Source: an uncultured delta proteobacterium (GTDB lineage: Bacteria; Desulfobacterota; RBG-13-43-22). From it: a stretch of DNA of 64,000 bases. The first letter of the stretch is position 1. Every line of letters starts with the position of its first letter. This document shows, one piece after another, positions 28,843-56,491 of this stretch. The notes under the pieces are model-generated. The model had not been told where the DNA came from. It saw only the letters and a list, made by a program, of their open reading frames with translations, and searched no databases. Location of the stretch: the NCBI GenBank assembly GCA_963802945.1, contig CAWDKY010000030.1:241046-305045 (forward strand), in the 5' to 3' direction. The position numbers were made by a program, and so were the translations under genes.

Positions 28843-29031
28843 ACTGATTAGGGAGATAATTATAATGTAAATTGGGGTCGGACCACGCGAAGATTTTGAT
28901 CAGACAAATTAGCAGATAACCAATCACTTCTCCACAGAGAAGAATGTTTCGTCATAAAAATTAACATTTGATCCGGCGACTTCAAATCGTCGGCATTGAT
29001 TTGAAAAGTTCTTCCTGATTAGGAGAATCAT

Positions 29032-29871
29032 ATGAAGAAATTAATTTTGCAAGGACATTCAACGTACGACGGCGCCGGAGTTAAGTTGAAGCGTATTTTC
29101 GCGCATGACCACACAAAACTTACCGATCCGTTCCTGCTCCTCGACCATTTCGGTTCAGACAATCCCGATGATTATGTAAAAGGCTTTCCCTGGCATCCTC
29201 ATCGCGGGATTGAAACAGTGACCTATATGCTCGGTGGAACGGTTGAGCATGGCGACAATATCGGTAACGCGGGCACGATCGGGCCGGGAGATATTCAATG
29301 GATGACCGCGGGCGGCGGTGTAATTCACCAGGAGATGCCGAAACCTTCAAAAGGAATGATGCACGGGTTGCAGCTGTGGGTAAATTTGCCTGCGAAAAAT
29401 AAGATGATGGAGCCGCGCTACAGGGGTATACTCGAAGATGAAGTGCCGGTCGTCAAGATACCAGGCGGAGAAGTGCGGGTCATAGCCGGCGCTTACAAAA
29501 ATGTAACCGGTCCCGTGCAGGAACTGGTAGTAGATATCGAGTACCTGGATGTCCGGTTAAAGAAGGGAATGTCTCTATCCCACACGGCTAAAAAAGGATA
29601 CACCAGCTTTTGTTATCTTATCGAAGGAACAGGCGAGTTTGATGACACGAAACTGGAACAAGCACAGCTGATTCTCTTCACGGAAGCCGGTAGCATTGCC
29701 ATAAAGGCGATTGAAGATATCCGTTACATATTTGTTACCGGCAAGCAGCTCAACGAACCGATTGCCTGGGGCGGCCCAATTGTTATGAATACGCAGGAAG
29801 AGCTTGAAATTGCTTTCAGAGAGCTTGACGAAGGTACGTTTATCAAGAAAAAACAGGAGACAAACGGCTAG
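29032..29871 (+). CDS. Pirin family protein
   Basis: DPFLLLDHF, GFPWHPHRGIETVTY, WMTAGGGVIHQE. Confidence 0.95.
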   Translation: MKKLILQGHSTYDGAGVKLKRIFAHDHTKLTDPFLLLDHFGSDNPDDYVKGFPWHPHRGIETVTYMLGGTVEHGDNIGNAGTIGPGDIQWMTAGGGVIHQEMPKPSKGMMHGLQLWVNLPAKNKMMEPRYRGILEDEVPVVKIPGGEVRVIAGAYKNVTGPVQELVVDIEYLDVRLKKGMSLSHTAKKGYTSFCYLIEGTGEFDDTKLEQAQLILFTEAGSIAIKAIEDIRYIFVTGKQLNEPIAWGGPIVMNTQEELEIAFRELDEGTFIKKKQETNG

Positions 29872-30073
29872 AGGGTCGGGAATCAGGTCTCCGTTTGACT
29901 TATAAAAATAGCCAGGAACGCCTAACGGGATCAGGCACGTTAGGTATTTGATCCAACAGAGCGGCAGAAAACCAATTACTTCACCAAAGAGAAGAATTTT
30001 TCGGCCTAGTATGAATGGAAGACCTGATCCCATGAAGTGCTTCCCAGATAAGTAACGCCGGAGCAGGAGGATT

Positions 30074-30418
30074 GTGATGAGTAAAATCATAGAAAGTAAA
30101 TCTGATCTTGATAAGATGTTGAATGAATGCCCGCGCCTATTGGTTCTTTTTTATGCTTCCTGGTGTCCTCATTCGCGAAGGTTTCTGCCGATTTTCGAAA
30201 AATATTCCGAGAATAATGAAAATAATTTGTGTCGTGTTTTAACGGATGAAATTGAAAGTTGTGTAAAAAACTATTCTATCAAGGTAGTACCAACGGTGAT
30301 TTTCTTTAAGAATGGTAAGATTGCAAAACGTTTAAATGGGATTGCTGGAATAGGATTGAATGAAAAACAGTTGGTGGAAATGATAGATTCATGTAAGATT
30401 TCAGAAGATCTGAACTGA
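30074..30418 (+). CDS. Thioredoxin-fold protein (CxxS)
   Basis: FYASWCPHS, VVPT. Confidence 0.85.
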   Translation: MMSKIIESKSDLDKMLNECPRLLVLFYASWCPHSRRFLPIFEKYSENNENNLCRVLTDEIESCVKNYSIKVVPTVIFFKNGKIAKRLNGIAGIGLNEKQLVEMIDSCKISEDLN

Positions 30419-30470: not shown

Positions 30471-31108
30471 ATGTTGGGGTCGGACCGGGCCAAGGGATTA
30501 AATCCTCAAAGAATTATGCAAGAAATGATGGGTAAAAAAGGCCTTAAAGCCAACTTTTTACCCCCAAAAAGTAGCTTCTAAACGTAAGATTTTTTACATT
30601 TGGCGAGACATTGTTGAATGTTTGCATTGGCATTTTATGGCCCGAACAGGCCTCGAAGAAATCGAACCGTTTTGAATTCGAAGTAGGTTAAAGGCCAAAC
30701 GGATAAAAGTAAGGAGGAATGATGTCCATTCGCATTGTCAGACTCGGCTCTCCCCGGGAAGCCGGAGAAGGGATTCGTCTCGGGACGGTTCGGCGGCCAC
30801 CGCGGGGGGTCCCTAAATCAGAGTATGCCAAACGCGATTTTTATGATGCCTGGCTGCCCCTTCTTTCTCCAAGCGAAGAGTTGTTAAAAGAAGGAAAGCT
30901 ATCCCTTGAAGGTCGGGCCTGGGCTGTTTTTAAGAGGAAGTTCCTGGCGGAAATGAACCGACCTGATCCGCGCAAGGTCTTGGACCTTTTAGCAGCTTTT
31001 TCTCAGCAAACCCATTTTTCGTTGGGATGCTATTGCGAGAATGAACACCGCTGCCACCGATCGATCTTGAGAGAGTTGCTTTTGGAGCGCGGAGCGAAGG
31101 TGGTTTAG
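30471..31108 (+). repeat. 638-bp direct repeat (spacer plus DUF488 gene); second copy 36028-36665
   Basis: Constant 5557-bp offset from the spacer start to the stop codon. Confidence 0.95.
30719..31108 (+). CDS. DUF488 (YeaO-like) protein, copy 1
   Basis: GTVRRPPRGV, WLPLLSPS, CYCENE..CHRS. Confidence 0.85.
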   Translation: MMSIRIVRLGSPREAGEGIRLGTVRRPPRGVPKSEYAKRDFYDAWLPLLSPSEELLKEGKLSLEGRAWAVFKRKFLAEMNRPDPRKVLDLLAAFSQQTHFSLGCYCENEHRCHRSILRELLLERGAKVV

Positions 31109-31274
31109 TAAGTGAAAAGTCGGGGGCGCCGTTAACTTATCAGAATTTAACAGCGCCCCCTAAAACACGATAGAATGGAAAAACAAGAATTAGAGGAAGT
31201 AGTTGACAGTTGCCCCCGATTAAGCGAGTGCTTATATTAACCATTAGAATTCTTTAGTTCGTAGGGAGGAGAAC

Positions 31275-31631
31275 ATGGTGAAATATCTGCTATACGTATT
31301 GAGATGGGTTGTTCTCGCCATACCGGGAGCGTTGTTTTTTAACAAAGCGAAAGAATTGCTGGGTATTGATAATGTGTACATGGTTATGATAATTAGCCAG
31401 GGCGTGATGGGCGCTATGGTCTATTTTCTCGACAGGCTGATTTTTACATCTGGCGCAATACCCATACCATGGGAAATAAAACCCCGCGGCGTCTGTGCCG
31501 ACTGCGGACGTGTGGGGAAATGCTACAGAGTGGCTGGAGAGAGATGCTGCGAGGTACGTGATAAGGCAACCGAAGAAGGATTTATATGCGAAAAATGCGC
31601 TGTAAAAAAGATACAGTACATAAATGATTAA
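31275..31631 (+). CDS. Small membrane protein with Cys-rich C-terminus
   Basis: Two TM segments; CADC..CEKC. Confidence 0.65.
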   Translation: MVKYLLYVLRWVVLAIPGALFFNKAKELLGIDNVYMVMIISQGVMGAMVYFLDRLIFTSGAIPIPWEIKPRGVCADCGRVGKCYRVAGERCCEVRDKATEEGFICEKCAVKKIQYIND

Positions 31632-31944
31632 TCGTGTTGAGGTTGGTGTCGCGTAATGCCAAGGGCGCATAGTTCAAAGCTGATAGCTCAAAGTAAAGAA
31701 TAGCTGAAGCGTCTTGGAAAGGAACCTTTTCGGCCTCTGAAGTTGATGTTGGTGTCGGACCAGGCCAAGGAATTCAATTTTCCAAGAATTATAAAAGAAA
31801 TGATGGGGAAAAACAGGCCTTAAACCGGTCTTTTTGGCCTCCAAAAGCAGCTTATAAGCAAACGCTCACCATACCGAAACCATCGAATTGTTAGACCTCG
31901 CAAGCAGCGGCCTAAAGTTGGCCTTTCGGTTTCTGCTTTTCCCC

Positions 31945-31973
31945 TTGCCCCGGTCTTTTTCTTGCCTTATACT
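31945..31973 (+). promoter_or_regulatory. Portable sigma70 promoter M3 (copies also at 35320, 42235, 44260, 46277, 47082, 48026)
   Basis: TTGCCC-CGGTCTTTTTCTTGCCT(17)-TATACT, each upstream of a + strand ORF. Confidence 0.8.
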
Positions 31974-32035
31974 TATTCTATCAAAAAGCAATTCTTATCA
32001 AATTTGGAAGAGGAATTGTAAAAAGGTAGGTTAGT

Positions 32036-33112
32036 ATGATGAAAATGGAACCCGGTTTCAGGACCAATTTTGAAACAGGCATGTACCGGCCGCCCAGTGA
32101 GGGAGGGAGTTATTCCCTGCTGATCCGGTTTACGCGAAACTGCCCCTGGAACCAGTGCACTTTTTGCAGTATGTATAAAAATGAAAAGTTTTCCTTTCGG
32201 TCTGCAGAGGAAATAAAGAGAGACATCGAGGCCATAAACGCCCTTTGTGCCGGTTTGATGACCATTTCTTTGGAACTTGGCTTCAAAGGAGAAATCAACA
32301 GGGCCGTGGTCATCGAGATGGTCAATAGAGACCCGGAGCTGACGAACAGCCATGGATTTTACATGGTCTTAAATTGGATCCAGGCCGGAGGAAAAACTGC
32401 CTTTCTCCAGGATGCCAACAGCCCAACCATGCCAACCGAAACACTGGCCGGGGTACTGAAAACCTTAAGGGAAACCTTTCCATCCCTGGAAAGAGTGACC
32501 TCTTATGCCCGGTCTAAAACCCTGGCCCGCAAAAGCTTGGATGATTTGAAAGCCATTCGGGCAGCGGGTTTGGACCGGCTGCATGTCGGTTTGGAAACCG
32601 GAGATGATGTCCTCTTGAAAATGGTTAAAAAAGGCGTTACCAGCCAGGAGCATATCGAAGGAGGAAGAAAGGCCATGGAAGCCGGGTTTCAACTATCCGA
32701 ATACTGGATGCCGGGACTTGGAGGAAAAGCATTATGGGAAGGACACGCCCGTAATACGGCCCGCGTTCTCAATGCCATCAACCCCCATTACATACGATCC
32801 CGCCCTTTCGTCCCGTCCCCGGGAAGCCCCATCTGGGAGGATATTGAAAGCGGTGCTTTGCAAATCCTGACTATTGAAGAACAACTGAAAGAACTCTCAG
32901 TGATGATCGAGAAACTGGAAGTCACCTCCAATGTTTGCTTTGACCATGTCGGCAATTACTGGCGAAATCGAAGGGGGCATCTATTGTTCACCCAGGATTA
33001 TGAGGGGTATCGGTTCCCGGCAGAAAAATCCAAAGTCCTGGCCTTGATCCAGGAAGGCATCGAGGCTCAAAAAAAAGTTCCCCACAACATTGGTAAAGGC
33101 TTGTCTCTCTGA
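32036..33112 (+). CDS. Radical SAM protein
   Basis: YRPPSE, CPWNQCTFC (CxxxCxxC), GLETG. Confidence 0.9.
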   Translation: MMKMEPGFRTNFETGMYRPPSEGGSYSLLIRFTRNCPWNQCTFCSMYKNEKFSFRSAEEIKRDIEAINALCAGLMTISLELGFKGEINRAVVIEMVNRDPELTNSHGFYMVLNWIQAGGKTAFLQDANSPTMPTETLAGVLKTLRETFPSLERVTSYARSKTLARKSLDDLKAIRAAGLDRLHVGLETGDDVLLKMVKKGVTSQEHIEGGRKAMEAGFQLSEYWMPGLGGKALWEGHARNTARVLNAINPHYIRSRPFVPSPGSPIWEDIESGALQILTIEEQLKELSVMIEKLEVTSNVCFDHVGNYWRNRRGHLLFTQDYEGYRFPAEKSKVLALIQEGIEAQKKVPHNIGKGLSL

Positions 33113-33314
33113 AAATCAGATGTTGGGGTCGGACCTAGCCAAGGGGTTAAATTTTCAAATAATTATGCGAGAAAGGATGAGTAAAAAGGCCCTAAACCGG
33201 CCTTTTTGGCCTCAAAAAGAAGCTTATAAGCAGACAGGCCGGGGGACAGGTCTATAATCTTGCATATTACTGGATAACCATTCATCTTTGCCCCGATTTA
33301 GGGAGGTAAACAAA

Positions 33315-34160
33315 ATGCTAAAAAAGTTAAAACAAAACAGTGAAAGCACAATCACTATTTATTTAGTTTCGGATGGAAGTGGCGAAACAGCTAAAAGGAT
33401 CGTTAACTCTGTACTGACACAATTTAAAAGTAAACCATTATTAGAGGTCAAGCCAAATATTATTACAACTAAAGAGGCAAGGCAAGTAGTGAATTTAGCA
33501 AAGCGGGATGGTGCGCCAATTTTCTTTACGATGGTTAAATCAGATATCAGAGCAATTATAAAAAGTGAGACGCAAAAAAGAGGGATTATTTCTGTCGATT
33601 TGCTTGGATCTTCACTTAAGGTATTACATAAAATAATAAAGAGTGCGCCGTCTGAAACCCCCGGCTTATCTCAAGAGTTTGAAAAAGAACGTATAAGGCG
33701 AATGCGTGCCATAGACTTTACACTAGAGCATGATGATGGGAAAGATCCAAATGGTTATAAAGATGCTGATGTCGTTCTTGTAGGTGTTTCTCGTGCTTCT
33801 AAAAGTTGTACTGCATTTTATTTAGGTTATTGCGGTATAAAAGCAGCCAATGTTCCAATCCATTATGCTACACCGATCTCCCACGAATTATTGAAATTAG
33901 ATAAAGAGAAGCTTGTGGCACTAACAATAACACCAAGCAGACTTGAAAGTGTTCGAACTATAAGAGCCAAGCAGTTTAAATTTGACATTAAAGATCCCTA
34001 TACTGACAAACGTGAAATTGCAAAGGAGATAAGACATATTAATTTTTTAATCAATAAATATAAGTGGAAGACGGTTGAAGTTTCTTATAAGGCAATTGAG
34101 GAGGTCGCTTGGGAAGTTGGTCGTCGCGTAGGCTTAAATGTGTCATACTTTCCTTTATAA
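33315..34160 (+). CDS. Pyruvate,water/phosphate dikinase regulatory kinase-pyrophosphorylase (DUF299)
   Basis: VSDGSGETA, HDDG, ADVVLVGVSRASK, AANVP; visibly AT-rich. Confidence 0.9.
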   Translation: MLKKLKQNSESTITIYLVSDGSGETAKRIVNSVLTQFKSKPLLEVKPNIITTKEARQVVNLAKRDGAPIFFTMVKSDIRAIIKSETQKRGIISVDLLGSSLKVLHKIIKSAPSETPGLSQEFEKERIRRMRAIDFTLEHDDGKDPNGYKDADVVLVGVSRASKSCTAFYLGYCGIKAANVPIHYATPISHELLKLDKEKLVALTITPSRLESVRTIRAKQFKFDIKDPYTDKREIAKEIRHINFLINKYKWKTVEVSYKAIEEVAWEVGRRVGLNVSYFPL

Positions 34161-34650
34161 AGGTGACTGGCATTGGGGTCACCCATTAAAAGGCCCTGTC
34201 AAGAGAAATAGATTCTCCGTATGCAAGAATGGTCATTTTTTCTTGCCTTTTTATGAGGTCGGACCAGGCCAAGGGGGTGTTTGGGAAATGGGTTGGACAA
34301 GCCCAACGGAATAAATTTTCAAAGAACAATATAAGAAATTATGGGCAAAAAAGGCCTTAAACCGGCCTTTTTGGCCTCAAAAAGAAGCTTTTAAGCAGAC
34401 GGGCCTGAGGTCAGGTCTATCATCTTGCACATTACAGATGGAGAGACGTTGTTGAATTAATTGAATTGGTCTGTTGGGGCCCGAATAGACCAGACAACCA
34501 ACGGCCCAAAGAAGGTTTTTCCTGTGAGGAAGAAATTGGATGATCTTTAATGCCAAAGCACTTATTATCTGCCGGGTAATCCATGAATCGACAAAGATTG
34601 CCTGATTAACTATACTCACCACAAAAACTGATCGTAGAGGAGGTTATCCC

Positions 34651-35208
34651 ATGGACAAGAACGAGAGAGACTCACGGAAGAAAAAAGTCATTGAAGTGCT
34701 GAATAAGGCGCGATCCCTGGAGTTGCGGGCCATCCACCAGTATATGGTCCAGCACTACAACCTCGATGCCCTGGATTATGGGGAGATGGCGGTCAATCTT
34801 AAACTGATCGGCATTGACGAGATGCGCCACGCCGAGATGTTTGCCGACAGAGTCAAGCAGCTTGGTGGTGAGCCTACGACCGATCTGGCGGGAAAGGTAG
34901 AAAAAGGTCAGACCGTAGAGAAGGTGTTCTCCTTTGACGCCGCCCTCGAAGACAATGCCATTGCAGAATACAACCGGTTTGCCGCCGTCTGTCGGGAGAA
35001 TGGCGATGCCATCAGCATGAAGCTCTTTGAGACGATTATCGAGGAGGAGCAGGCACATCTCGACTACTTCGATAACGTAACAGACCACATCAAGAATTTG
35101 GGGCAGGTTTATCTCGCCCAGATTGCGGGCACACCCTCAAGCACGGGCCTCGCACACCAGGGTTTCGTGATTCGTCAGGCAGGCGGGGGATCGCCGAAAG
35201 TGGTATAG
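34651..35208 (+). CDS. Bacterioferritin / ferritin-like protein
   Basis: ELRAIHQY, DEMRHAE, EEEQAH. Confidence 0.88.
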   Translation: MDKNERDSRKKKVIEVLNKARSLELRAIHQYMVQHYNLDALDYGEMAVNLKLIGIDEMRHAEMFADRVKQLGGEPTTDLAGKVEKGQTVEKVFSFDAALEDNAIAEYNRFAAVCRENGDAISMKLFETIIEEEQAHLDYFDNVTDHIKNLGQVYLAQIAGTPSSTGLAHQGFVIRQAGGGSPKVV

Positions 35209-35418
35209 GCATTAAGAAGATCGTGTTATGGATTGGCCGACGTTTATCCCGGGCACACCATACTTATATGCTAAGCAACTAACGGCCTAAAGAAGGTTTT
35301 TCGGTTTCTGCTTTTCTCCTTGCCCCGGTCTTTTTCTTGCCTTATACTCTTCCCATCAACAAGTCAATTCTTATAAAATCATCGGTTTTAAATAATAAAA
35401 GAAGGAGGGAGGGCAAGG

Positions 35419-35964
35419 ATGGGCAAATCATCACCTAAGGAGGTTTTCAAAGAACTATTAAAGAGTGAGACAGTGTCTCTGGTCGTCGAACATAAGTTAC
35501 GCGGTGTCACTCCTGAAATGCTGGACTGGTGGTGGGACAACATGGACAACGATAATTATAAGTTATGGAATCCCAAGGACCACATTGCTCTTGAATGGCA
35601 AATCCCACCAAACCAGGTGGGACATGTCGGTGCTATTCATATGGCCTGCGAGAGCATAAGCGACATACCCCCTCAAATCATACGTATCCGATGGGAGGAC
35701 CCAAGTGCGGCGCTCATTACCCCCATTTACAGCCATGTCAATGTGGGCAGTTCCCTTGCCCCCGGCACTGACGACACCCCGCTGGGCAGTGTTGTCCACG
35801 AATATGAAGAGACATCTTACGGGACACAAATGCGCTCCACATTTATTCTTCCCGCGATTGTACCTCAATTTTTCATTGATTTTTTACGTCAGCACAACAT
35901 AGCCGAAATGGGACAATTTCCCGAATTTCTGCCACAACTATATAAGCAGAAAACCGGCCCATGA
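35419..35964 (+). CDS. DAPG hydrolase PhlG-like domain protein
   Basis: GVTPEMLDWWW..YKLWNPKDH..HNIAEM..FLPQLY. Confidence 0.7.
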   Translation: MGKSSPKEVFKELLKSETVSLVVEHKLRGVTPEMLDWWWDNMDNDNYKLWNPKDHIALEWQIPPNQVGHVGAIHMACESISDIPPQIIRIRWEDPSAALITPIYSHVNVGSSLAPGTDDTPLGSVVHEYEETSYGTQMRSTFILPAIVPQFFIDFLRQHNIAEMGQFPEFLPQLYKQKTGP

Positions 35965-36275
35965 TGAAACATGCCATTTGGCCTAAGGTAGTTACGGATC
36001 GGAATAGAAGGGCCGGTTCTCTTTTACATGTTGAGGTCGGGCCTGGCCAAGGGAATTAATCCTCAAAGAATTATCCAAGAAATGATGGGTAAAAAAGGCC
36101 TCATAGCCAACTTTTTACCCCCAAAAAGTAGCTTCTAAACATAAGATTTTTTACATTTGGCGAGACATTGTTGAATGTTTGTATTGGCATTTTATGGCCC
36201 GAACAGGCCTCGAAGAAATCGAACCGTTTTGAATTCGAAGTAGGCTAAAGGCCAAACGGATAAGAGTAAGGAGGA

Positions 36276-36665
36276 ATGATGTCCATTCGCATTGTCAGAC
36301 TCGGCTCTCCCCGGGAAGCCGGAGAAGGGATTCGTCTCGGGACGGTTCGGCGGCCACCGCGGGGGGTCCCTAAATCAGAGTATGCCAAACGCGATTTTTA
36401 TGATGTCTGGCTGCCCCTTCTTTCTCCAAGCGAAGAGTTGTTAAAAGAAGGAAAGCTATCCCTTGAAGATCGGGCCTGGGCTGTTTTTAAGAGGAAGTTC
36501 CTGGCGGAAATGAACCGACCTGATCCGCGCAAGGTCTTGGACCTTTTAGCAGCTTTTTCTCAGCAAACCCATTTTTCGTTGGGATGCTATTGCGAGAATG
36601 AACACCGATGTCACCGATCTATCTTGAGAGAGTTGCTTTTGGAGCACGGAGCAAAGGTCGTTTAG
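36276..36665 (+). CDS. DUF488 protein, copy 2
   Basis: Three amino-acid differences from copy 1. Confidence 0.85.
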   Translation: MMSIRIVRLGSPREAGEGIRLGTVRRPPRGVPKSEYAKRDFYDVWLPLLSPSEELLKEGKLSLEDRAWAVFKRKFLAEMNRPDPRKVLDLLAAFSQQTHFSLGCYCENEHRCHRSILRELLLEHGAKVV

Positions 36666-36731
36666 TCGGGCATAGAAGCCCTGGTCCTTTGGACCAGGGC
36701 ATAGTTCAGTGAATGGGGAGGTTTAATTAAG

Positions 36732-44971: not shown

Positions 44972-45105
44972 CGTCATGCAAGTTGTTGGTAGGGGGTCGG
45001 ACCTAGCCAACGGGTTAAATTCGAGGTCGGGGGTCAGGACTTGAATCTTGCACACTGCGGCCTATTAAAGCAGGCTTCGCACTTAAACTTAATGAAAGGG
45101 AAAAG

Positions 45106-47316: not shown

Positions 47317-47321
47317 TCATC

Positions 47322-47456: not shown

Positions 47457-47507
47457 AAATTTTAAAACCTAACTTAATACACTATTTCTATCGGAGGAGG
47501 AAACTGA

Positions 47508-47885: not shown

Positions 47886-48182
47886 ACAACCTTTTGATTT
47901 CCTAAGATGAATCGGGTAATTGCTGTTTTGTGTGGCTATGTCTTTTTAGGTATTCCGGGTACACAATACTTATATTCTAAGCAACGAATGGCCTAAAGAA
48001 GGTCTTTCAATTCGTGCTTTTCTCCTTGCCCCGGTCTTTTTCTTGCCTTATACTCTTACCCAGAAAAGGAATTTCTTATCAAAAATACTGATAGATGATG
48101 ACGCCTATCTGTCTTGGCCTGAGGGCGATAAATGAGGTCAGTTTCCTTTTTATAAATAAGCATGAAATTATCGGGGGGTATT

Positions 48183-48842: not shown

Positions 48843-48997
48843 AAAGGTAGTTAAAAGGGGATGCTGTTCATTTATTAAGTTGACGGTTGGGAATGGGTAA
48901 GAAGGTCAAAGCTTCAATAAGGACATGCCTTAATCTGATAAGCACCATTCTTCGTGGGAAGTTTGAAGGGATTAAATGGCCTTTGAAAAGAGAGCCC

Positions 48998-49501
48998 ATG
49001 AAACACGTTTCTATTTTCCTCATCTTCCTCATGCTCTTCACCACCAGCGCTGTCTGGAGCAAAACCGAGACCACCTGGCGGGATCCGAAGGGGAACTACA
49101 CACTCACCTACCCGGAAGGCTACGAAGCACGTATTGACCCGAAGGACGGCAGCCTGAACCTATTCCATTCTTCCACAGCCTCCACCATTAACTTCCTACA
49201 ACTGGCGGAAAAGGTTCCCTTCAAGGATCTGGCCATCATAGAAAAGAATACCGTAAGGCGGTTCGAGTCAAAGAGATACACCATTCTGGCCCGCACTCAG
49301 GAAAAGTTCCAAGGGAATCCTGGTTTTAGGATTGACCTCGGCAAGAAAAGAAAGGGCCCAGCAGTGCGCTTGGAAGTGCATCTCTTTTTCTGGAAGGCCG
49401 CTGTGTACATGTTCATGGGAATATGGAAAGGAGACAGCTATACAGCCCAGAGGGAGGATTTCCAGAAAATAATGGGCAGCCTTCGTTTCACCGATCGGTA
49501 A
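48998..49501 (+). CDS. Exported PsbP/DcrB-like protein
   Basis: Signal peptide; YTLTYPEGY..FQKIMGSLRF. Confidence 0.6.
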   Translation: MKHVSIFLIFLMLFTTSAVWSKTETTWRDPKGNYTLTYPEGYEARIDPKDGSLNLFHSSTASTINFLQLAEKVPFKDLAIIEKNTVRRFESKRYTILARTQEKFQGNPGFRIDLGKKRKGPAVRLEVHLFFWKAAVYMFMGIWKGDSYTAQREDFQKIMGSLRFTDR

Positions 49502-49834
49502 GACCGTACCCCGCAGTGTCGTTGGGGTCGGACCAGGCCAAGGGATTAAATGCTCAAAGAATTAGAAAAGAAATAATGCCTAAAGGCCGGGGTGCAGGTC
49601 TTGAATCTTGCACATTACCCGATAACCATTCATCTTTGCCCCATGGCTTGATCTGAGAAATTCTTCCTGAAATTCTCGACCCTACTCTTTTTGAAAAAGA
49701 CAAGAATTCAAACGGCAATCAACCCAAAGGCCATTAGGAGTCCGTTATTCTTTAAAACCGCCTTTTGAACACTTTTTATTTGCTTAACTGTAAACAAAGA
49801 CTTATAATATACCCCATCATAGTAGGGGAAAAAA

Positions 49835-50770
49835 ATGGCCAAGCCCCCAACTACAACTGCCTCAACCAGGGGAAAAAATAACCTTCTTCTTTTTCCGGTG
49901 TTGGATCTGAAGGGCAATCTCATTGCCCAAGAGGGTGCCCCGCTTTCCAAGCGATTTTTCTGGAAGATTGTCGGGGTTGCCCCCCAACCCAAACCTTTCA
50001 TTCCTGTCGAGGGACTTCCCACCCTCTGGTCAGACTTAAACCAAGCCATTTCCGATCTGCCATACCGGGAACTTTTCAAAAATACTAAAGCCAAAACTAA
50101 CCTGGTAGATATGTTAAAAAATGCCCGGCTTTCTCCCTTTATCATAGATGGTCTCGCCTTTTTTAAAGAGAAAGACTCCTATACCTACTGGCATTCCCTT
50201 CATGTCTTTGTTCTTACCGGTTACCTGGCGATGGAATTGATCCGCCTACCGGAGTGGGAACGACATTTTGCCGTCATGGGACCTCTCCATGATATCGGCA
50301 AGATCAATGTACCCGTGGAAATCCTGCAAAAGAAGACCCCGCTAACCCGGAGTGAACTTCAACGTCTTCATCATCACACGGTGGCAGGGGCCATTCTCCT
50401 CAATCATTTCCACGGTGAAAAGGATCTATTGGGTCCCCTCGTTGCCCTGGAGCATCACGAGCGGCTGGACGGCTCCGGATACCCCTCTGGAGTCCCGATC
50501 TCCAACCCTATTGTGGAAATGGTGGCCGTTTGTGACGTTTATGATGCCTTGATATCGCCACGTCCCTACCGCAACCGACCTTTTGATTTACGCACCGGGC
50601 TTGAGGTCTTGACTCAATTAGCTATAGAGGGAAAATTCTCCAAAGATACGCTCCGATTTATGATTTCCTTACACCGAAAGGGTAAACCCGATTACAAAAA
50701 AGTTGCCTTTTCCCTGGAAACAAGAGGTACCCCTCCAGAGGAAAATTTTTACGGCCTCTTGGATTATTAA
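49835..50770 (+). CDS. HD-GYP domain phosphodiesterase
   Basis: HDIGK, HHERLDGSGYP, DVYDAL..RPYR. Confidence 0.92.
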   Translation: MAKPPTTTASTRGKNNLLLFPVLDLKGNLIAQEGAPLSKRFFWKIVGVAPQPKPFIPVEGLPTLWSDLNQAISDLPYRELFKNTKAKTNLVDMLKNARLSPFIIDGLAFFKEKDSYTYWHSLHVFVLTGYLAMELIRLPEWERHFAVMGPLHDIGKINVPVEILQKKTPLTRSELQRLHHHTVAGAILLNHFHGEKDLLGPLVALEHHERLDGSGYPSGVPISNPIVEMVAVCDVYDALISPRPYRNRPFDLRTGLEVLTQLAIEGKFSKDTLRFMISLHRKGKPDYKKVAFSLETRGTPPEENFYGLLDY

Positions 50771-51146
50771 CCAAGGCGCAAACTATTTCTCAAAACCCGT
50801 TGGCTTTTTTCTGTGTTGAAAGGAATCCGGGGATACCATTCTAGTTATTTCTTGACAAGGGAGGTTTAAGGAAAAACGTAGACCATACACCTTAGGCCTT
50901 ATACCGTTAAATCATTTGAATCCTTGACCCCTTTCTTCCAGCTCATTGGGAAAAGGACCCTATTTAGTTACCCGAATAGACTGACCTACCAACGACACAA
51001 CGAAGCTCTTTCGATGACCTGTTCTAGGGGATCATCCTGCCCCGGCTTTGATTTATTTTAAGGCCTAAAAAAAATCAATAAAACTTGAAATGATGGTTGC
51101 CGACATGGTAAGGTCATGAAAATATTTTTGATGGAGGGATGTAGTC

Positions 51147-53015
51147 ATGGCATTAAATCCGTTAGTTGATTCGAGAGACTTAAGGTTTGCCCTGTTTGAG
51201 GTTCTGGAGGCGGACAAACTCAACCAGTATGAAAAGTTTGCTGATTTCGACAAGGATACCTTTGAGGCAACCCTGGAACTGGCCGAACAGATTGCCGTCG
51301 AACAGGTCTATCCGGCCAACATCGAAGCTGACAAAACCGGGGCCAAATATGAGCCCGAAACCAAGACCGTGAAGGTGCCCCAGGGATTCCATACGGCCAT
51401 GGACCTTTACCGGGAATCCGGCTTTTCCGGTTTGAGCAACGGCACTGAATTCGGAGGCATGGGCATGCCGGAAACCATTTATCGGGCCGTCATGGAGTAT
51501 TTCAGCGCTGCCGGTGTCGCCTTCAGCTCTTATGATACCCTGAAAGTCGGCGCCTGTAATCTGATTATCCATCACGGCACTGATGAGCTTAAAAAGACCT
51601 ATGTTGAGAAAATGGTGGCCGGTCAATGGGGCGGCACGATGTGTTTGACTGAACCGACGGCAGGTTCCGATGTCGGGGCCTTAAAGACCAAAGCCGTTAA
51701 ACAGGCCGACGGCACCTACCGTATCATTGGTCAAAAGATTTTTATCACGGCCGGCGATAATGATTTGTATGAAAATATCATCCATCCGGTCCTGGCCAGG
51801 ATTGAAGGCGATCCTCCCGGAACCAAGGGGATATCGATTTTTATCGTTCCCAAATATCTGGTCAACCCCGACGGCAGTATCGGCTGGCGAAATGACATTA
51901 TCACCACCGGCATTGAGCACAAAATGGGCATCAAGGGCTCGGCCACCTGTTCCCTTTCTTTCGGCGACAACAACCAGTGCGTCGGCTATCTGCTGGGACA
52001 GGAACGGCAGGGGATAGAAATCATGTTCCAGATGATGAACGAAGCGCGTCTGGATGTGGCCCAGCAGGCCATGGGTACGGCCAGTGGCGCTTATATGCAC
52101 GCCGTGACCTATGCCAAAAACAGAATCCAGGGCGCGGATCCGGCGGCCAAGAAGGGTGATTATACCTCGGTGCCGATCATCAAACATCCCGATGTCCGCA
52201 GGATGCTTCTGTGGATGAAATCGCAGGTGGAAGCCATGAGAATGCTGACCCTGCTGGCCGCTTATTCCGCCGATATGAGCCATGTCCAGGAAGGCGACGC
52301 AGCCCAGGAAGCCCAGGCGCTGCTGGATTTTCTGATCCCGCTTTGTAAAGCCGGCAATTCCGATCTGGCCTGGCTGATTACCTCCGAGGCCATGCAGGTT
52401 TACGGCGGATACGGCTACTGCTCGGAATATCCGGTGGAGCAACTGGCCCGGGACTGCAAGATCCTGGCCATCTATGAAGGCACCAACGGTATCCAGTCGG
52501 CGGATCTGATTAATAGAAAATTGCTTTTGAATCCGGGCATGTTTAATTACAATGTTTTTAAAAAGAGGATTTCCGAAACGATGGCCAAGGCCAAAGGGGT
52601 TGTTGAGGATAAGTATCTTTTGGCTATGAAGACGGCCGTTGAAAAAATGGAGGCCACCGTGCAGAAGCTGATCGAACTCCGAAACCAGGAGAAGAAACTG
52701 GATATCTTGGCCGTGGCCACGCCCCTGCAACAGGCCATGCGCATGGTGGCCCATGCCTGGATGCATCTGTGGTCCCTGTCGATTGCCGTTCCCAAACTCA
52801 AAGCCCTGGCCGGAGACATCGCCGGGGAAAAGGTCGTGGCCAAAGTCAAGGATAACGCCGAGGCGGCTTTCTATTACGGCAAAATCCTGTCGGACAGGTT
52901 TTATCTGGGTACCGAGTTAAAGCATCTGCCGGGGTATCTGGATTACATTACCTCCGAAGAGACAGCCCTTGGGGATTCTTTTGAAGAGGTATTTACAGGC
53001 GCTTTAACGCAGTAA
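51147..53015 (+). CDS. Long-type acyl-CoA dehydrogenase (FadE5/DmdC-like)
   Basis: GTMCLTEPTAGSD, EHKMGIKG, YEGTNGIQ. Confidence 0.93.
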   Translation: MALNPLVDSRDLRFALFEVLEADKLNQYEKFADFDKDTFEATLELAEQIAVEQVYPANIEADKTGAKYEPETKTVKVPQGFHTAMDLYRESGFSGLSNGTEFGGMGMPETIYRAVMEYFSAAGVAFSSYDTLKVGACNLIIHHGTDELKKTYVEKMVAGQWGGTMCLTEPTAGSDVGALKTKAVKQADGTYRIIGQKIFITAGDNDLYENIIHPVLARIEGDPPGTKGISIFIVPKYLVNPDGSIGWRNDIITTGIEHKMGIKGSATCSLSFGDNNQCVGYLLGQERQGIEIMFQMMNEARLDVAQQAMGTASGAYMHAVTYAKNRIQGADPAAKKGDYTSVPIIKHPDVRRMLLWMKSQVEAMRMLTLLAAYSADMSHVQEGDAAQEAQALLDFLIPLCKAGNSDLAWLITSEAMQVYGGYGYCSEYPVEQLARDCKILAIYEGTNGIQSADLINRKLLLNPGMFNYNVFKKRISETMAKAKGVVEDKYLLAMKTAVEKMEATVQKLIELRNQEKKLDILAVATPLQQAMRMVAHAWMHLWSLSIAVPKLKALAGDIAGEKVVAKVKDNAEAAFYYGKILSDRFYLGTELKHLPGYLDYITSEETALGDSFEEVFTGALTQ

Positions 53016-53175
53016 ACCCCACAGCACAGGTCAGATGTTACAGATGTTAGTGTACAGATTTAGGGTCGGCCCGAGCCAAGGGGTGAATCCTTCGGGTTCA
53101 GGCAGGGGTTAATTTTAAAAGAATGATAATAAAAAACAGCGGTTCTGCGGAAAAATCGGTTGAGGAAGCAAAGAG

Positions 53176-53210
53176 ATGCCGCCGTCCCTTAGTGCCTGAG
53201 ACGGCGGCAT
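53176..53210 (-). terminator. Intrinsic terminator hairpin
   Basis: ATGCCGCCGTC...GACGGCGGCAT between convergent genes. Confidence 0.7.
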
Positions 53211-53237
53211 TTGACGTGGTTCGATAGGGATATAGGA

Positions 53238-55097
53238 TTAGGCGAAATTGGCCAGTTCTACATTAGCCACCGCCGGTTCATTATTCATGATGCAGTCCAC
53301 CCGGCCAAAGAATTTCGGATATTCTGCGCCGATGAAAAACTGCGCCGACAGCACGCGGCCGTAATAGTAAGCGGCTTCAGCATTACTCTCGAGAAGCTTT
53401 TTGAGGTCGTCACCCTTAGCGCCGCCTACCAGGGCCTGGCACTTCGGCCCCGTGACGGTGAGGCTCCAGAGGTGCAGCCAAGCCAGGATCAAGAGAAACA
53501 TGGCCTGCTGGAGCGGCGTCGCGTTGGCAGCGAGTTCTACCAGCTGGCCACCCATAAGCTGCCCGGCCATCATATTGACGATCTCGTCAAGTTGCTCCAT
53601 GCCCTTGGCGACCGGGGCAATGTACTTGTCGTCCACGACGCCTTTGGCCTTAGCAACGGTCTCGGCCATATACTTCTTGAGCATCTTGTAGTTGTACATG
53701 TCGGGATTCAAGAGCATTTTGCGCATCAGCAAATCCATCGACTGAATGGCATTGGTGCCTTCATAGATGGAGAAAACCTTGACGTCGCGGGCATACTGCT
53801 CGGCGGGATATTCCTGGCAGTAACCATAGCCTCCGTAAACCTGCATGGCTTCAGCCGTAACCAGCCAACCGGCGTCGGAGATGCCGGCCTTGACGATGGG
53901 CGTAAGAATTTCCACGATGCCCGTCGACTCCATTCTCTCTTCTTCCGACGGCGAGGCCTGCTCGACATCTTCGTGATAAGACAGGAAATAGCAGAGCATC
54001 CTCATGCCTTCGATGGTACTCTTCATATAAAGCAGCATGCGTTTGACGTCGGGATGCTCGATAATGGCCACGCGCGGCGCGGCTTTGTTCATTGATTGCG
54101 AGATATGGGTGCCTTGAATGCGCTCTTTGGCATAATCGACGGCATGCATATAGGCGGCACTGGATACTGCTTCCGCCTGAAGCCCGGTATGGATGCGGGC
54201 GGCGTTCATGAGCATGAACATGACCTTCATGCCTTTTCGTTCCTGGCCCAGCAGGTAGCCGACGCATTTGCCGTTTTCGCCGAAATTCAGCGTTGAGGTG
54301 GCATTGCCTTTGATTCCCATTTTATGTTCGACGCCGGCGCAAAATACATCGTTGCGCGCGCCCAGCGTTCCATCGGGATTCACCAGGAACTTCGGCACCA
54401 CGAAAATCGAAATGCCTTTCGTCCCTTCCGGGTCGCCTTCAATGCGGGCCAGCACCGGATGAATGATATTTTCCGTCAGGTCGTGTTCGCCGTTGGAAAT
54501 GAAGATCTTCTGACCCGTAATGAGATAGGTGCCGTCCGCCTGCTTGACCGCCTTGGTCTTCAGCACGCCGAGATCGGAACCCGCGGTGGGCTCTGTGAGA
54601 CACATGGTGCCGCCCCATTTACCTTCCATCATTTTGGGGACAAACATGTTCTTGACCTCTTCCGAACCAAAAGTCTCAATAATTGAGATGGCGCCGCTGA
54701 TGGCACCGCAATACATGGTCAAGGCCGTGTTGCCGGCGTTGAAATATTCGGCGGCCGCTGTGGCAATTGCGTTCGGAAGACCCATTCCTCCTATATCCTG
54801 AGGAAACTGCAGGATATGGAAGCCGGCCTCCAAATAGGCGTTAAAGGCCTTGTGAAAGGATTCGGGGACCTTGACTTCATTTTTTGCGGCGTCGAACTTC
54901 AGCCCGATTCTGTCGCCATCGACGTTCGACGGGAAAAACTGCTCAAAGGCAATTTCTTCGGCCAGCTTGAGCGTATCTTCATAGACGCTCCGGTCAAAAT
55001 CCTTGAATGGCTCGAGGCGGTTGAGTTTCTCAATCTCGAGCATTTCAAACAGAGTAAAACGAACATCACGTGAATCTACCAATTGACTTACAGCCAT
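53238..55097 (-). CDS. Long-type acyl-CoA dehydrogenase, paralog of 51147-53015
   Basis: Same motifs; convergent orientation. Confidence 0.93.
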   Translation of the reverse strand: MAVSQLVDSRDVRFTLFEMLEIEKLNRLEPFKDFDRSVYEDTLKLAEEIAFEQFFPSNVDGDRIGLKFDAAKNEVKVPESFHKAFNAYLEAGFHILQFPQDIGGMGLPNAIATAAAEYFNAGNTALTMYCGAISGAISIIETFGSEEVKNMFVPKMMEGKWGGTMCLTEPTAGSDLGVLKTKAVKQADGTYLITGQKIFISNGEHDLTENIIHPVLARIEGDPEGTKGISIFVVPKFLVNPDGTLGARNDVFCAGVEHKMGIKGNATSTLNFGENGKCVGYLLGQERKGMKVMFMLMNAARIHTGLQAEAVSSAAYMHAVDYAKERIQGTHISQSMNKAAPRVAIIEHPDVKRMLLYMKSTIEGMRMLCYFLSYHEDVEQASPSEEERMESTGIVEILTPIVKAGISDAGWLVTAEAMQVYGGYGYCQEYPAEQYARDVKVFSIYEGTNAIQSMDLLMRKMLLNPDMYNYKMLKKYMAETVAKAKGVVDDKYIAPVAKGMEQLDEIVNMMAGQLMGGQLVELAANATPLQQAMFLLILAWLHLWSLTVTGPKCQALVGGAKGDDLKKLLESNAEAAYYYGRVLSAQFFIGAEYPKFFGRVDCIMNNEPAVANVELANFA

Positions 55098-55477
55098 AAA
55101 TTCCTCCTTTGAAAAATAAATAAGGTGGTTGCCAAATTCGAGGCCGGCCAGGGGAGAGTTTACTTTTATTTCAGGGGGTTAACTATTTCTATTGCCTGTC
55201 GGTAATCCCAAACCGGTTTCATCCGAAAACCTATGGACATTAACTTTTTTCAAGCGGCATTCTATCTAAGATTTAAATTAAGTCAATTGATATTTATGGA
55301 TTGAGTATTGGCCAATTGTGTATTTTGAATTGGGGTCGGACCAGGCCAGGGGATTAAATTCGAGGTCTAGGGTCAGGTCTATAATCTTGCACATTACGTG
55401 GTCAAAGCAGAACACTGCGGCAGGGTTTTTTATAAGCAGGCCATAGTTGATGTCGGTTGGCTTGACATCAAAGGGTC

Positions 55478-56335
55478 CTACCTATGTTCACAAAATCCAC
55501 CGTCGATCGTAATGACCTTACCGGTCACATAATCGGATAGATCGGTCACCAGGAACTCCACAACCTTGGCGCAATCTTCAATCGTTCCTTCCCTTCGGAG
55601 GGGGATTTGGGCAGCCATCCGGCTTCGGTCTCCGAGTCGGCCGGTGCGTATTATGCCCGGAGCAATACTATTGACATTGATATTATACGGCCCCAGCTCC
55701 TGAGCGAGGGATCGGGTATAATGAATGATGGCTGCCTTAGCCATCCCATAGGGATGATAGAAGGCCGTGGCGCGAATACCGGCCCCGGAAGAAGAGGTAA
55801 CGATTTTTCCCCATCGCTGCGCTTTCATATAGGGCGCAACGGCCATGCAAGTGTACATACAGGACATCAGGTTAATGTCCAATACTCTCACTAACATTTG
55901 CTGGGGACAATTCGCCGGGGTTCCGGTCAGGCCGATGTCTTTTATCTTTCCCTCTGAAAGCTTGCCGTAAGGATTTTTCTCCGCTTCAACCTCATCGGCA
56001 AAGGTGACTGTGCCGCCCCCGGCGTTACAGACGGCAATATCGATTCGTTCCAGCTGATCGACAATATCGGCCACCGCCTTTTCCGTTGCTGGCCGGTCCG
56101 TTAAATCCACCTGGATGCCGATCGACCGAACCCCAAGGGCTCGGCACTCTTCCATGACGGTAGAGGCCGTCATCTGTTCCTTTTCAAAATCATACACATC
56201 TGCGGAATGGAGATTTCTATCCACAATAGCGATATCAGCCCCTAATCCCGCCAAGCGCAGTGCATAACCTCTTCCCAGGCCACGGGCTCCGCCTGTGATC
56301 ATGGCCACTTTACCGGTCAATTTTTTTTCGCCCAT
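55478..56335 (-). CDS. SDR family oxidoreductase
   Basis: TGGARGLG, CNAG, YGMAK. Confidence 0.92.
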   Translation of the reverse strand: MGEKKLTGKVAMITGGARGLGRGYALRLAGLGADIAIVDRNLHSADVYDFEKEQMTASTVMEECRALGVRSIGIQVDLTDRPATEKAVADIVDQLERIDIAVCNAGGGTVTFADEVEAEKNPYGKLSEGKIKDIGLTGTPANCPQQMLVRVLDINLMSCMYTCMAVAPYMKAQRWGKIVTSSSGAGIRATAFYHPYGMAKAAIIHYTRSLAQELGPYNINVNSIAPGIIRTGRLGDRSRMAAQIPLRREGTIEDCAKVVEFLVTDLSDYVTGKVITIDGGFCEHR

Positions 56336-56491
56336 AGGCTATCTCCTAATAAAAATGATTGATAAGGTTCAAAAGTTGTGTGTGGCCGCCATAAGAAAAA
56401 TTTTTGATTTGTTTTTCTCCTCGACCCGGTCTTTTCCCTGTCTTAATATTTAACCACCAAAGAAAAAATTATTATCAACTTACTGTTCTGC

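Follow-up and report, generated by a model that had tools for sequence, protein, structure and literature searches.

Modular Spacers in a Co-Oriented Gene Row

The window analysed here is a 64,000-nucleotide (nt) stretch from the metagenome-assembled genome (MAG) of an uncultured delta proteobacterium, and its region 28860-56460 holds a row of genes separated by spacers that are assembled from recurring sequence modules. The genome, designated G000 (4.37 Mb, 72 contigs), contains the window at G000:C30:241046-305045, where the right end of the window is also the end of the contig. In this row, 24 open reading frames (ORFs) lie on the + strand between 29032 and 53015, followed by three ORFs on the - strand that extend up to 58303. 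A first-pass annotation had interpreted the array as an integron-analogous system for gene capture and expression which lacks an integrase and operates by a different chemistry.

The spacer repeats were divided into four modules, M1, M2, M2b and M3, and profiles of these were searched with nhmmer. M1 (~115 nt) consists of a box (TTGGGGTCGGACC..GCCAAGGG), termed M1a, an A-rich tract and a GGGTAAAA/TTTTACCC hairpin. M2 (36 nt; ..AGGTCTaTAATCTTGCACATTAC) and M2b (64 nt; ..TATGGCCCGAATAGACC..) are conserved blocks, while M3 is composed of M3a, a small hairpin (AACGGCCTAAAGAAGGTC), and M3b, a segment of about 70-95 nt with the motif TTGCCC-17-TATACT and a conserved leader. The modules follow one another in the fixed order M1 > M2 > M2b > M3a > M3b, and all 31 nhmmer matches (E ≤ 0.1) in 28860-56460 lie on the + strand. 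The fixed order claimed by the first-pass annotation was thereby recovered, although it applies to the 18 of 27 spacers that carry modules, as nhmmer found no module match in the other nine. The positions of the junctions between modules are variable, with no single crossover point. Most module copies share just 60-90% identity, and the M3b copies of the array have exact stretches of ~43 nt in common. A search of 26000-60000 against Rfam (E ≤ 1) returned no match, and by eye M1 to M3 show no inverted termini, a feature of miniature inverted-repeat transposable elements (MITEs).

M1 is probably a terminator or a 3′-end stabiliser, judging from the succession of the box and a hairpin placed between an A-tract and a T-tract. 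In the alignment fold this hairpin is weak, with eight pairs, a consensus energy of -4.4 kcal/mol, little covariation and an AT-rich composition. Other assignments of the modules were dropped. A sigma-54 promoter in M2 or M2b was discarded by eye, the GG..GC spacing being one off in each; M1 contains an ATG-initiated frame in some copies, while the copies at 38760 and 49521 have none; and the alignment of M2b corresponds to a conserved block without the clear compensatory arms of a covarying hairpin. M3a resembles the left end of an insertion sequence (IS) by eye (CCAAyGG..AAAG), but nhmmer (E ≤ 10) and blastn gave nothing. In some spacers a further module (..GATAACCATTcAtcTTtCCCC..GAGAAgTTCTTCCTGAAAT) occurs 3′ of M2 (49619-49722, 33271-33294 and 28905-28960), and it is likewise found just 3′ of a 295-nt element described below (58738-58814).

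Origin of M3b from an IS91-Family Element

M3b copies are left-truncated right (oriIS-side) ends of one IS91-family element, of which they retain the terminal ~95-125 nt. Of the Y2 transposase genes of G000, one (C25) is intact and two are fragments. The intact elements at G000:C25 and G010:C24 encode a TnpA of 444 aa that scores 174.1 and 176.4 bits, respectively, against NF033538, the IS91-family model of NCBIfam (cut-off 125), and a Pfam scan of the G000 copy identified the domains Zn_Tnp_IS91 (PF14319) and Y2_Tnp (PF04986). Homology between the elements begins at ..AAAAGTyCCAAT.., ~130 nt upstream of tnpA; they are 85% identical from there to 77 nt beyond the stop codon and continue collinearly to a shared end, ...TTCTTATCAAA, beyond which the flanks are unrelated. 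The two ends of the element are unlike each other. A palindrome of the AAGAATTCTT type is situated close to the right end, within M3b, and a second palindrome (GAATGGAG..CTCCATTC) is present in a subset of the copies. We infer that the right end acts as oriIS and the left end as terIS.

In a scan of 21 Y2 loci of the genus, a co-oriented M3b was found downstream of the Y2 domain end at +505 nt in G000:C25 and +502 nt in G010:C24, and M3b also lies 3′ of two decayed Y2 copies (G007:C165 and G002:C78). Three decayed copies, of which G007:C165 carries two and G004:C7 one, retain unbroken blastn homology between tnpA and positions 2562-2567, where M3b ends. In all, five element copies from four genomes run from tnpA through M3b and stop at about the same point. 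The MAFFT alignment places the last ~105-110 nt of both intact elements over long solo M3 copies from G000 and G005, whereas M3a falls outside the IS and is no part of the element. Within the array, the long M3 at 46190-46333 aligns with these last 105-110 nt and corresponds to IS positions 2465-2566 in blastn, and the M3 at 31899-32002, with its TTGCCC-17-TATACT at 31945-31973, matches the right end of the IS as well. When G000 was searched with the two elements (blastn), eight places extended from tnpA in the direction of the right end, including the intact copy, nine started after the stop codon, 31 comprised the terminal ~125 nt only, and 79 were internal tnpA relics. The intact and decayed copies, the alignment and the graded truncations therefore identify M3b as the left-truncated right end of this element.

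M1, M2 and M2b have no similarity to the IS, and the array spacers contain no tnpA-internal relics. In 56 aligned copies, the positions after ..ATCAAA show no conserved tetranucleotide that could represent a GTTC/CTTG target; GTTC/nTTC is located 8 nt inside the conserved end. An M1 copy abutting the left end of the IS in G007 was set aside, since the IS is truncated there and the association is not real. Further relics of the IS91-family tnpA are found near the contig end at 62292-62499 and 59805-59864 (76-79% identical to element positions 1737-1917 and 2057-2114, respectively), with no M3b downstream. A second Y2 subfamily (186-222 bits), in which a tyrosine-recombinase gene precedes, is represented by loci in G013, G004 and G008 and is multicopy in G013; modules were found at the ends of none of nine loci of this integrase-linked subfamily.

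Genes Downstream of M3b

The consensus of 56 M3b copies is TTGACC-17-TATACT with the conserved leader, conservation covers about 95 nt, and the motif points at the next gene. In the promoter scan, TTGCCC-17-TATACT was detected at seven copies of the array. Outside the window, 37 of the 47 M3 copies with a downstream neighbour face a gene on the same strand, whose start is mostly within 150 nt. The 31 ORFs located 3′ of M3b copies outside the window include Cu/Zn superoxide dismutase (SOD), AhpC, Usp and two AFORs, together with O-antigen ligase, PagL, MBOAT, MatE, GH1, HpaB, a BadF/BcrA-type ATPase, a histone-deacetylase-family protein and fragments of an aminotransferase and a carboxyltransferase. 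These genes are neither one regulon nor a housekeeping set. Directly 3′ of the M3b copy in 47023-47140, the 45-codon ORF 47179-47316 (MNWIKTAVLMGAVTLVLLVAG...) contains a hydrophobic stretch and may encode a small membrane protein driven by the putative promoter of that copy.

Genome-Wide Dispersal of the Modules

Enrichment was calculated from genome matches at E ≤ 1e-3, with the region representing 0.63% of the genome and an even spread as the expectation. The region holds 7 of 22 M1 matches (0.14 expected), 6 of 16 for M2 (0.10), 5 of 13 for M2b (0.08) and 8 of 56 for M3 (0.35), which is ~20- to 60-fold above an even spread. At E ≤ 1, nhmmer found 39 M1, 32 M2, 18 M2b and 102 M3 matches in the genome, of which 10, 7, 5 and 10, respectively, are in the window. 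For every module family, most copies lie elsewhere in the genome, on many contigs. The modules are thus genome-wide dispersed repeat families and not a dedicated cassette site of the array locus.

Smaller runs of co-oriented genes with the order M2 > M2b > M3 are found again on C17, C29, C12 and C15. None of the 15 M1 copies outside the window lies inside a crude ORF, and relative to the upstream gene nine have the same and six the opposite orientation. Ten other module clusters carry a similar accessory mix of FMN reductases, Fer4, SDR, enoyl-CoA hydratases, DinB, Usp, glyoxalase, old yellow enzyme, toxin-antitoxin pairs and a type I restriction system, and no recombinase or transposase was found among their 94 ORFs (Pfam). 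The M1a box (up to three mismatches) occurs ten times in G000, eight of these in the array, eight times in G005 and 0-4 times in the 19 other family genomes, sister genera among them; the reversed pattern, used as a control, gave 0-2 copies per family genome. In the species collection, the M3b core pattern was found at 26 loci, 25 of them in MAGs of related uncultured bacteria (titled uncultured delta proteobacterium, Deltaproteobacteria bacterium or Thermodesulfobacteriota bacterium), and the lone match in a Lachnospiraceae MAG may be due to chance.

Gene Order in Relatives and Apparent Homogenisation of M3b

Homologs of the array genes in congeners have 75-97% nucleotide identity and are single and scattered. 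The closest relative, G005 (92-97% identity), contains the same genes and modules in another arrangement. In its contig C103 the Fer4 gene is joined via M2 straight to the window block 55370-58237; also in G005, M3 follows the acyl-CoA dehydrogenase (ACAD) gene 37594 in place of M1 and the M24 peptidase gene, and the DUF488 gene has M3b and then the second nitroreductase on its 3′ side. Blocks shared by G000 and G005 end at module edges, inside M2 or M3, or a few nt from stop codons. In G008, which is assembled in megabase contigs, the homologs are found in ordinary mixed-strand contexts; some keep M3 (nitroreductase) or M2b, and M1 is present at none of the seven loci examined. Across G000, G005 and G008, M3b is linked to its downstream gene.

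As a control, the left flank (1-19900) and the right part of the window (44100-64000) were compared with the same five relatives. They are also scattered, in operon-sized blocks of up to 3-4 kb, which makes low synteny a feature of the whole genus and not a speciality of the array. In contrast to these flank blocks, the rearrangement blocks of the array are single genes.

A 47-nt core of M3b was compared between orthologous positions. In three of four G000/G005 pairs it has 4-6 differences from the ortholog and only 0-2 from copies of the same genome, whereas the fourth pair behaves as vertically inherited. All seven array M3b copies read TTGCCCCGG, while most G005 copies read TTGCCCCAG. M3b copies thus look homogenised within the genome, which points to gene conversion. 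Among public sequencing runs, the share of the sampled words found in any one run did not exceed 0.17, and no RNA run was among the matches. Contigs of four sequencing runs show alternative joins at module positions, namely 45073>47470 in three runs and 38731>47956, 34518>42218 and 40166>44225 in two runs each. As their sides span 23-72 nt and the contigs stem from populations that are 90-99% alike, these joins are no more than a weak hint.

Comparison with Integrons

No integrase or transposase was found among the 58 ORFs of the window (Pfam). G000 has four PF00589 matches, none of them on contig C30; against TIGR02249, the top score in this genome is 79.6 bits (cut-off 265). Integron integrases above this cut-off (296-387 bits) are present in 6 of the 21 family genomes (G001, G002, G004, G007, G009 and G010), while G000, G005 and G008 have no TIGR02249 match above it. 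The intI loci include G002:C47, G004:C14, G004:C29, G001:C166, G009:C5, G007:C210, G007:C174 and G010:C28. In both G004 integrons, intI comes first, then one or two genes, next an element of ~270 nt with homology to 58237-58528, and finally ORFs that are co-oriented with intI, an unusual layout.

The modules are essentially absent from both G004 integrons, and nhmmer searches with M1, M2, M2b and M3 (E ≤ 5) on nine intI loci of the six genomes gave nothing significant or consistently placed; the best match near intI was an M2 at E = 0.002, 7.6 kb away. M2-like cores (..ACAGGTCTTGAA..) do occur inside one G004 integron-linked array. A crude scan for RYYYAAC..GTTRRRY with arm complementarity (strict and relaxed) had no hit in the window, but this result is uninformative because none was obtained in 14 loci around genuine intI genes or relics of congeners either. 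The promoter-like TTGCCC-17-TATACT in seven array spacers would distinguish these units from promoterless cassettes, which are read from one Pc.

The window copy of the homologous element (58237-58530, ~295 nt) has inverted sequences at its ends (TTTAACAGGTTGCTGAAA / TTTGAGCAACCTGTAAAA), while its interior is GC-rich and looks structured, and it resembles a MITE. In G000 the element occurs more than 60 times, complete or partial, on both strands, with no Rfam match, and both G004 integrons have it 0.8-1.4 kb downstream of intI. The window copy points away from the gene row and is unrelated to the modules.

Gene Content of the Array

The Pfam families of the row are diverse and comprise pirin, thioredoxin, DUF488, radical SAM, PEP-synthase regulatory kinase, ferritin, SDR, ACAD, M24 and S49 peptidases, flavin reductase, nitroreductase, Fer4, MarC, DUF2804, metallo-beta-lactamase (MBL) and HD (Table 1). 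The description of more than 20 mostly monocistronic, unrelated + strand genes given by the first-pass annotation holds in its main lines, with two restrictions. Four junctions between genes measure only 44-82 nt, and transcription units are therefore probably fewer than genes; moreover, the row contains two DUF488 genes, two nitroreductases and three acyl-CoA dehydrogenases. The DUF488 unit is duplicated over 639 nt (30471-31109 and 36028-36666; 96.9% identical in self-blast), extending exactly from the M1a 5′ end of M1 through M2b to the stop codon. As for the heterogeneous GC content reported earlier, outliers are indeed present at 30074-30418 (0.342), 33288-34160 (0.364) and 44384-44971 (0.570), the 1st, 2nd and 98th percentiles of the genome, but the mean and standard deviation of the array (0.491/0.052) match those of the genome (0.484/0.048). 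The proposed bias of the cargo towards redox, flavin and stress functions is weak because M3b precedes very diverse genes genome-wide, and the array is at most mildly skewed towards redox/stress genes.

For the MBL gene, the listed TTG start at 46225 overlaps M3, and in-frame ATG candidates are available at 46366-46378. A 39-nt sequence just 3′ of the first nitroreductase gene (42933-42971) is 85% identical to 48893-48931, the start of ORF 48887-49501, which comes after the second nitroreductase gene; this looks like the remnant of a duplicated two-gene unit. Elsewhere in the window, genes for a carboxyl transferase (2380-4154), a family III CoA-transferase (10174-11375) and Oxidored_FMN (60215-61063) are each split into two overlapping or adjacent ORFs and may represent frameshifts, pseudogenes or assembly errors. 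The stretch 18025-27210 has short repeats, such as 26427-26462 and 27417-27452, and includes five genes with an ORF6N domain, an NTase/HEPN pair and a gene of the DUF6530 family.

Table 1. Genes and spacer modules of the array, in window coordinates.
Feature	Position	Strand	Evidence or remark
M1a box alone (TTGGGGTCGGACC..GCGAAG), weak copy	28872-28899	+	repeat search, 75% identity; under nhmmer threshold
Pirin	29032-29871	+	
Thioredoxin	30074-30418	+	
Duplicated unit, copy 1 (M1 + M2b + DUF488)	30471-31109	+	self-blast
M1, full (M1a box, A-rich tract, GGGTAAAA/TTTTACCC hairpin)	30472-30587	+	nhmmer E=1.8e-34
M2b	30602-30664	+	nhmmer E=2.4e-17
DUF488, first copy	30719-31108	+	
Hypothetical	31275-31631	+	
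M1	31747-31864	+	nhmmer E=9e-32
M3 (M3a hairpin + M3b promoter-like site/leader)	31899-32002	+	nhmmer E=3.9e-28; 5′ of radical SAM gene
Radical SAM	32036-33112	+	
M1	33121-33236	+	nhmmer E=2.9e-31
M2	33236-33270	+	nhmmer E=1.7e-9
PEP-synthase regulatory kinase/PPase	33288-34160	+	
Extra M1a box	34253-34280	+	repeat search and sequence; tandem with next M1
M1	34289-34402	+	nhmmer E=1.1e-30
M2	34401-34435	+	nhmmer E=1e-8
M2b	34440-34503	+	nhmmer E=3.5e-16
M3a without M3b	34495-34521	+	nhmmer E=0.027, model positions 5-31
Ferritin-like	34651-35208	+	
M3	35273-35378	+	nhmmer E=3.8e-31; promoter-like site 35320-35348
DAPG-hydrolase-like	35419-35964	+	
M1	36029-36145	+	nhmmer E=1.1e-32; inside duplicated unit copy 2 (36028-36666)
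M2b	36159-36221	+	nhmmer E=4.8e-17
DUF488, second copy	36276-36665	+	
SDR	36732-37511	+	
ACAD	37594-38733	+	
M1	38762-38877	+	nhmmer E=2.4e-26
M24 peptidase	38958-40121	+	
M2	40407-40442	+	nhmmer E=1.7e-8
M2b	40447-40507	+	nhmmer E=3.9e-15
S49 peptidase	40548-41543	+	
Flavin reductase	41598-42104	+	
M2b	42138-42201	+	nhmmer E=1.1e-16
M3	42190-42293	+	nhmmer E=1.5e-27; 5′ of nitroreductase, linkage kept in G005 and G008
Nitroreductase, first	42316-42909	+	
Fer4 protein	43114-44199	+	
M2 fragment	44221-44244	+	nhmmer E=0.05; rearrangement breakpoint relative to G005
M3b alone	44247-44316	+	nhmmer E=3.3e-15
MarC	44384-44971	+	
M1a short form	44993-45022	+	nhmmer E=0.019; repeat search; joined straight to M2
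M2	45024-45058	+	nhmmer E=2e-8
DUF2804	45106-46128	+	
Long M3 (M3a + palindrome stretch + M3b)	46190-46333	+	nhmmer E=2.2e-23
MBL hydrolase (metallo-beta-lactamase-fold)	about 46366-46935	+	
M3	47023-47140	+	nhmmer E=2.3e-29; then 45-codon ORF from 47179
Hypothetical	47508-47885	+	
M3	47979-48083	+	nhmmer E=2.3e-29; 5′ of second nitroreductase
Nitroreductase, second	48162-48842	+	
Hypothetical	48887-49501	+	
M1 truncated (model positions 3-72)	49521-49587	+	nhmmer E=2.2e-12; joined to M2
M2	49584-49618	+	nhmmer E=5.4e-9
HD	49835-50770	+	
Long ACAD	51147-53015	+	
M1a-containing fragment	53060-53138	+	nhmmer E=0.066; repeat search 86%
Long ACAD	53238-55097	-	closes module-bearing stretch
M1a short form	55329-55361	+	nhmmer E=0.01
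M2	55362-55397	+	nhmmer E=1.9e-9
SDR	55478-56335	-	closes module-bearing stretch
M3b, divergent	56386-56478	+	nhmmer E=3e-8; between two - strand genes; orthologously conserved in G005
TPP enzyme	56492-58303	-	closes module-bearing stretch

Comparison with Known Repeat Systems

Several known systems share features with the array. IS91-family elements have unlike ends, with oriIS downstream and terIS upstream of tnpA, subterminal palindromes and GTTC/CTTG targets (PMC13181058). The parent element of M3b agrees with this in its non-inverted ends and subterminal palindromes, and its transposase, with Zn_Tnp_IS91 and Y2_Tnp, exceeds the NCBIfam cut-off; it differs in that no GTTC/CTTG target is evident at the M3b terminus. 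For ISCR1, an oriIS region of 232 bp has been described with outward promoters, PCR1-1 and PCR1-2, that raise the expression of the variable downstream gene (PMC6218425), and the M3b parent has the same layout of a promoter-bearing end downstream of tnpA that faces outward into the next gene. In contrast to ISCR, one chromosome here harbours one intact copy together with about 47 truncated right ends and about 79 internal relics, and the M3b ends precede ordinary metabolic genes of an environmental anaerobe instead of resistance genes.

M3b also fits the operational definition of putative mobile promoters by Matus-Garcia, Nijveen and van Passel (2012), which requires sequences upstream of non-homologous genes to share at least 80% identity across 50 nt or more, and 210 of those promoters were known insertion sequences (PMC3575422). 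In the corresponding test, the M3b repeat family comprised eight copies of 70 nt, of which five were at least 83% identical to the reference, with unrelated genes downstream. The M3b family is, however, far larger than the typical pair, its source element is identified, and it is embedded in a fixed-order mosaic with 3′ modules.

The array further resembles the bacterial interspersed mosaic elements (BIME) and repetitive extragenic palindromes (REP) of enterobacteria and the BOX elements of pneumococcus, which are mosaics of modules in intergenic space with a set order, variable presence and hairpins. In contrast to REP/BIME, it has no REP-type palindrome, and its modules are longer, include a promoter-like unit and are strictly co-oriented with the array genes. 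G000 has ten PF01797 (Y1_Tnp) matches, none near the module clusters, and a reading based on REP-associated tyrosine transposases was dropped, as these enzymes lie away from the modules. Like integrons and clusters of attC sites lacking integrases (CALIN), the array consists of units that point the same way, mostly hold one gene and alternate with repeats; no integrase lies close to it, and congeners carry integron integrases. However, the array spacers are mosaics of 130-570 nt with promoters of their own by motif, and they are found genome-wide and are absent from the intI-proximal arrays of congeners.

Mechanism of Array Formation

We consider it most probable (about 0.68) that the array consists of dispersed terminator- and promoter-bearing repeats reshuffled by homologous recombination, and that it represents a flexible chromosome patchwork and not an integron-like capture machine. 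In this uncultured Thermodesulfobacteriota (old 'Deltaproteobacteria') MAG, the locus would be a flexible chromosome stretch of about two dozen mostly stand-alone accessory genes, with the intergenic spaces filled by a mosaic of genome-wide repeat families. M3b would supply an outward sigma70-type promoter and leader from the IS91-family end and could drive dozens of unrelated genes, like the POUT of ISCR1. The fixed order and the nested deletions would result if one composite spacer was copied and parts of it were then lost or exchanged, and homologous recombination with gene conversion between repeats would have duplicated units, deleted stretches and reshuffled the gene order. Since breakpoints fall inside modules, junctions are variable, one unit is duplicated and no enzyme is found nearby, homologous recombination, presumably RecA-type and without a site-specific recombinase, is the most economical mechanism.

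Several points weigh against this explanation. A simple terminator scan made no call on the M1 hairpin, one M3b copy (56386-56478) has no co-oriented gene ahead, and the promoter activity of M3b and the terminator activity of M1 are predicted from their motifs. The repeats that would have been exchanged are partly short (M2, 24-36 nt) and near the lower limit of RecA-type recombination. The tidy unit boundaries, at the M1 5′ end and a few nt from stop codons, could reflect a site-specific process, and the conservation of M1a in sister genera suggests a sequence-specific function. In addition, homogenisation was observed in four pairs over one 47-nt core, and all genomes are MAGs, that of the window having 72 contigs and 6.7% contamination, so that chimeric joins at repeats are possible.

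Alternatively, one trans-acting IS91-family TnpA could work on dozens of solo M3b (oriIS) ends. Rolling-circle events that end early or late would then plant promoters and move neighbouring single genes, with the array as a hotspot, and recombination between the resulting repeats would assemble co-oriented gene rows. G000 does have one intact tnpA, the graded left-truncated right ends would be expected from early termination of a copy started at oriIS, and M3b contains the AAGAATTCTT-like subterminal palindrome, with the second one in some copies. In the IS91 family, 1-14% of events fail to terminate, and neighbouring DNA is then mobilised (PMC13181058), and the oriIS side of ISCR1 is variable and carries the outward promoters (PMC6218425). 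However, one-ended transposition moves the DNA on the terIS side, upstream of M3b, whereas in G000, G005 and G008 M3b and the gene downstream of it remain together. Nor would a gene-capture unit that ends at oriIS predict this linkage. None of the four M3b-containing blocks shared by G000 and G005 ends at the 3′ terminus of M3b (three cross it and one ends inside M3), no conserved GTTC/CTTG is visible just past this terminus, the array spacers are free of tnpA-internal relics, and M1, M2 and M2b are dissimilar to the IS. We therefore regard this scenario as unlikely; if true, it would functionally be an integrase-less counterpart of the integron in an environmental anaerobe.

A site-specific cassette system with M1a and/or M2 as the site and a recombinase located elsewhere or lost, as in a CALIN-like relic, has a small chance of being correct. 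The integron integrases of six family genomes, the co-orientation of the units, the exact start of the duplicated unit at the M1a 5′ end, the retention of M1a across genera at low copy number and the M2-like ..ACAGGTCTTGAA.. cores in one G004 array speak for it. Yet no module is significantly or consistently placed beside intI, and M1a is most abundant in G000 and G005, which both lack IntI, compared with 0-4 copies in IntI-bearing genomes. The G of the GTT core is not conserved in M1a (consensus ATTGGGG), M1 outside the array occurs in either orientation to genes, junctions vary, and the units have promoter-like sites. An even slimmer chance is left for an assembly artefact, in which the row would be a chimera joined at shared repeats during metagenome assembly and not one molecule. 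The contig number and contamination of G000, the exact ~43-nt stretches, the contigs of the closest relative that break at the repeats and the related populations with alternative joins would agree with such a chimera, but most copies are too divergent at 60-90% identity to collapse in an assembly graph, the window lies within a 305-kb contig, the same module orders recur on other contigs, and module copies are present in the megabase contigs of G008. Assemblers also usually break at repeats and do not misjoin them. Least probable is a pure regulon, with modules that are kept by one regulator or sigma factor of stress and redox genes and neither move nor recombine. SOD, AhpC, Usp, AFOR, nitroreductases, ferritin and thioredoxin are among the driven genes, but so are O-antigen ligase, PagL, MBOAT, GH1, HpaB and MatE; moreover, the ~95 nt of conservation exceed an operator, M3b is physically part of an IS, and its copies are closer to each other within a genome than to their orthologs.

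Part of the first-pass annotation is supported. What it observed is real and well above chance, and the absence of intI holds for the window and for contig C30. The different chemistry it envisaged has a counterpart in the promoter module, which stems from an HUH rolling-circle element of the IS91 family (ISCR related), with no integrase. The proposed search of the genome with module profiles found M1, M2, M2b and M3 on many contigs. With regard to gene capture and expression, a portable promoter-like M3b exists, but the modules are dispersed, none of the 11 clusters examined contains a recombinase or transposase, and junctions vary, so that the integron analogy is not supported as a mechanism. 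As the rival case, that annotation had named dispersed MITEs in a conserved, vertically inherited gene order; the spacers are dispersed repeats, while gene order is not conserved. Portable promoters derived from IS ends and mosaic intergenic repeats are both known, and the array is a variant of both.

For genome scans, the locus is a caution that single genes which share an orientation and alternate with repeats can pass for an integron array, even in a genus with real integrons. Promoter propagation is known from statistical descriptions and has rarely been traced to an element; here it gains a definite source and a mechanism that can be tested. In this clade of uncultured bacteria from soil, peat and groundwater, the promoter-bearing end of an IS91-type element can become a standard 'plug-in' promoter for dozens of unrelated genes, and such repeats, together with the 3′ modules, would make part of the chromosome a patchwork whose gene order varies between close relatives.

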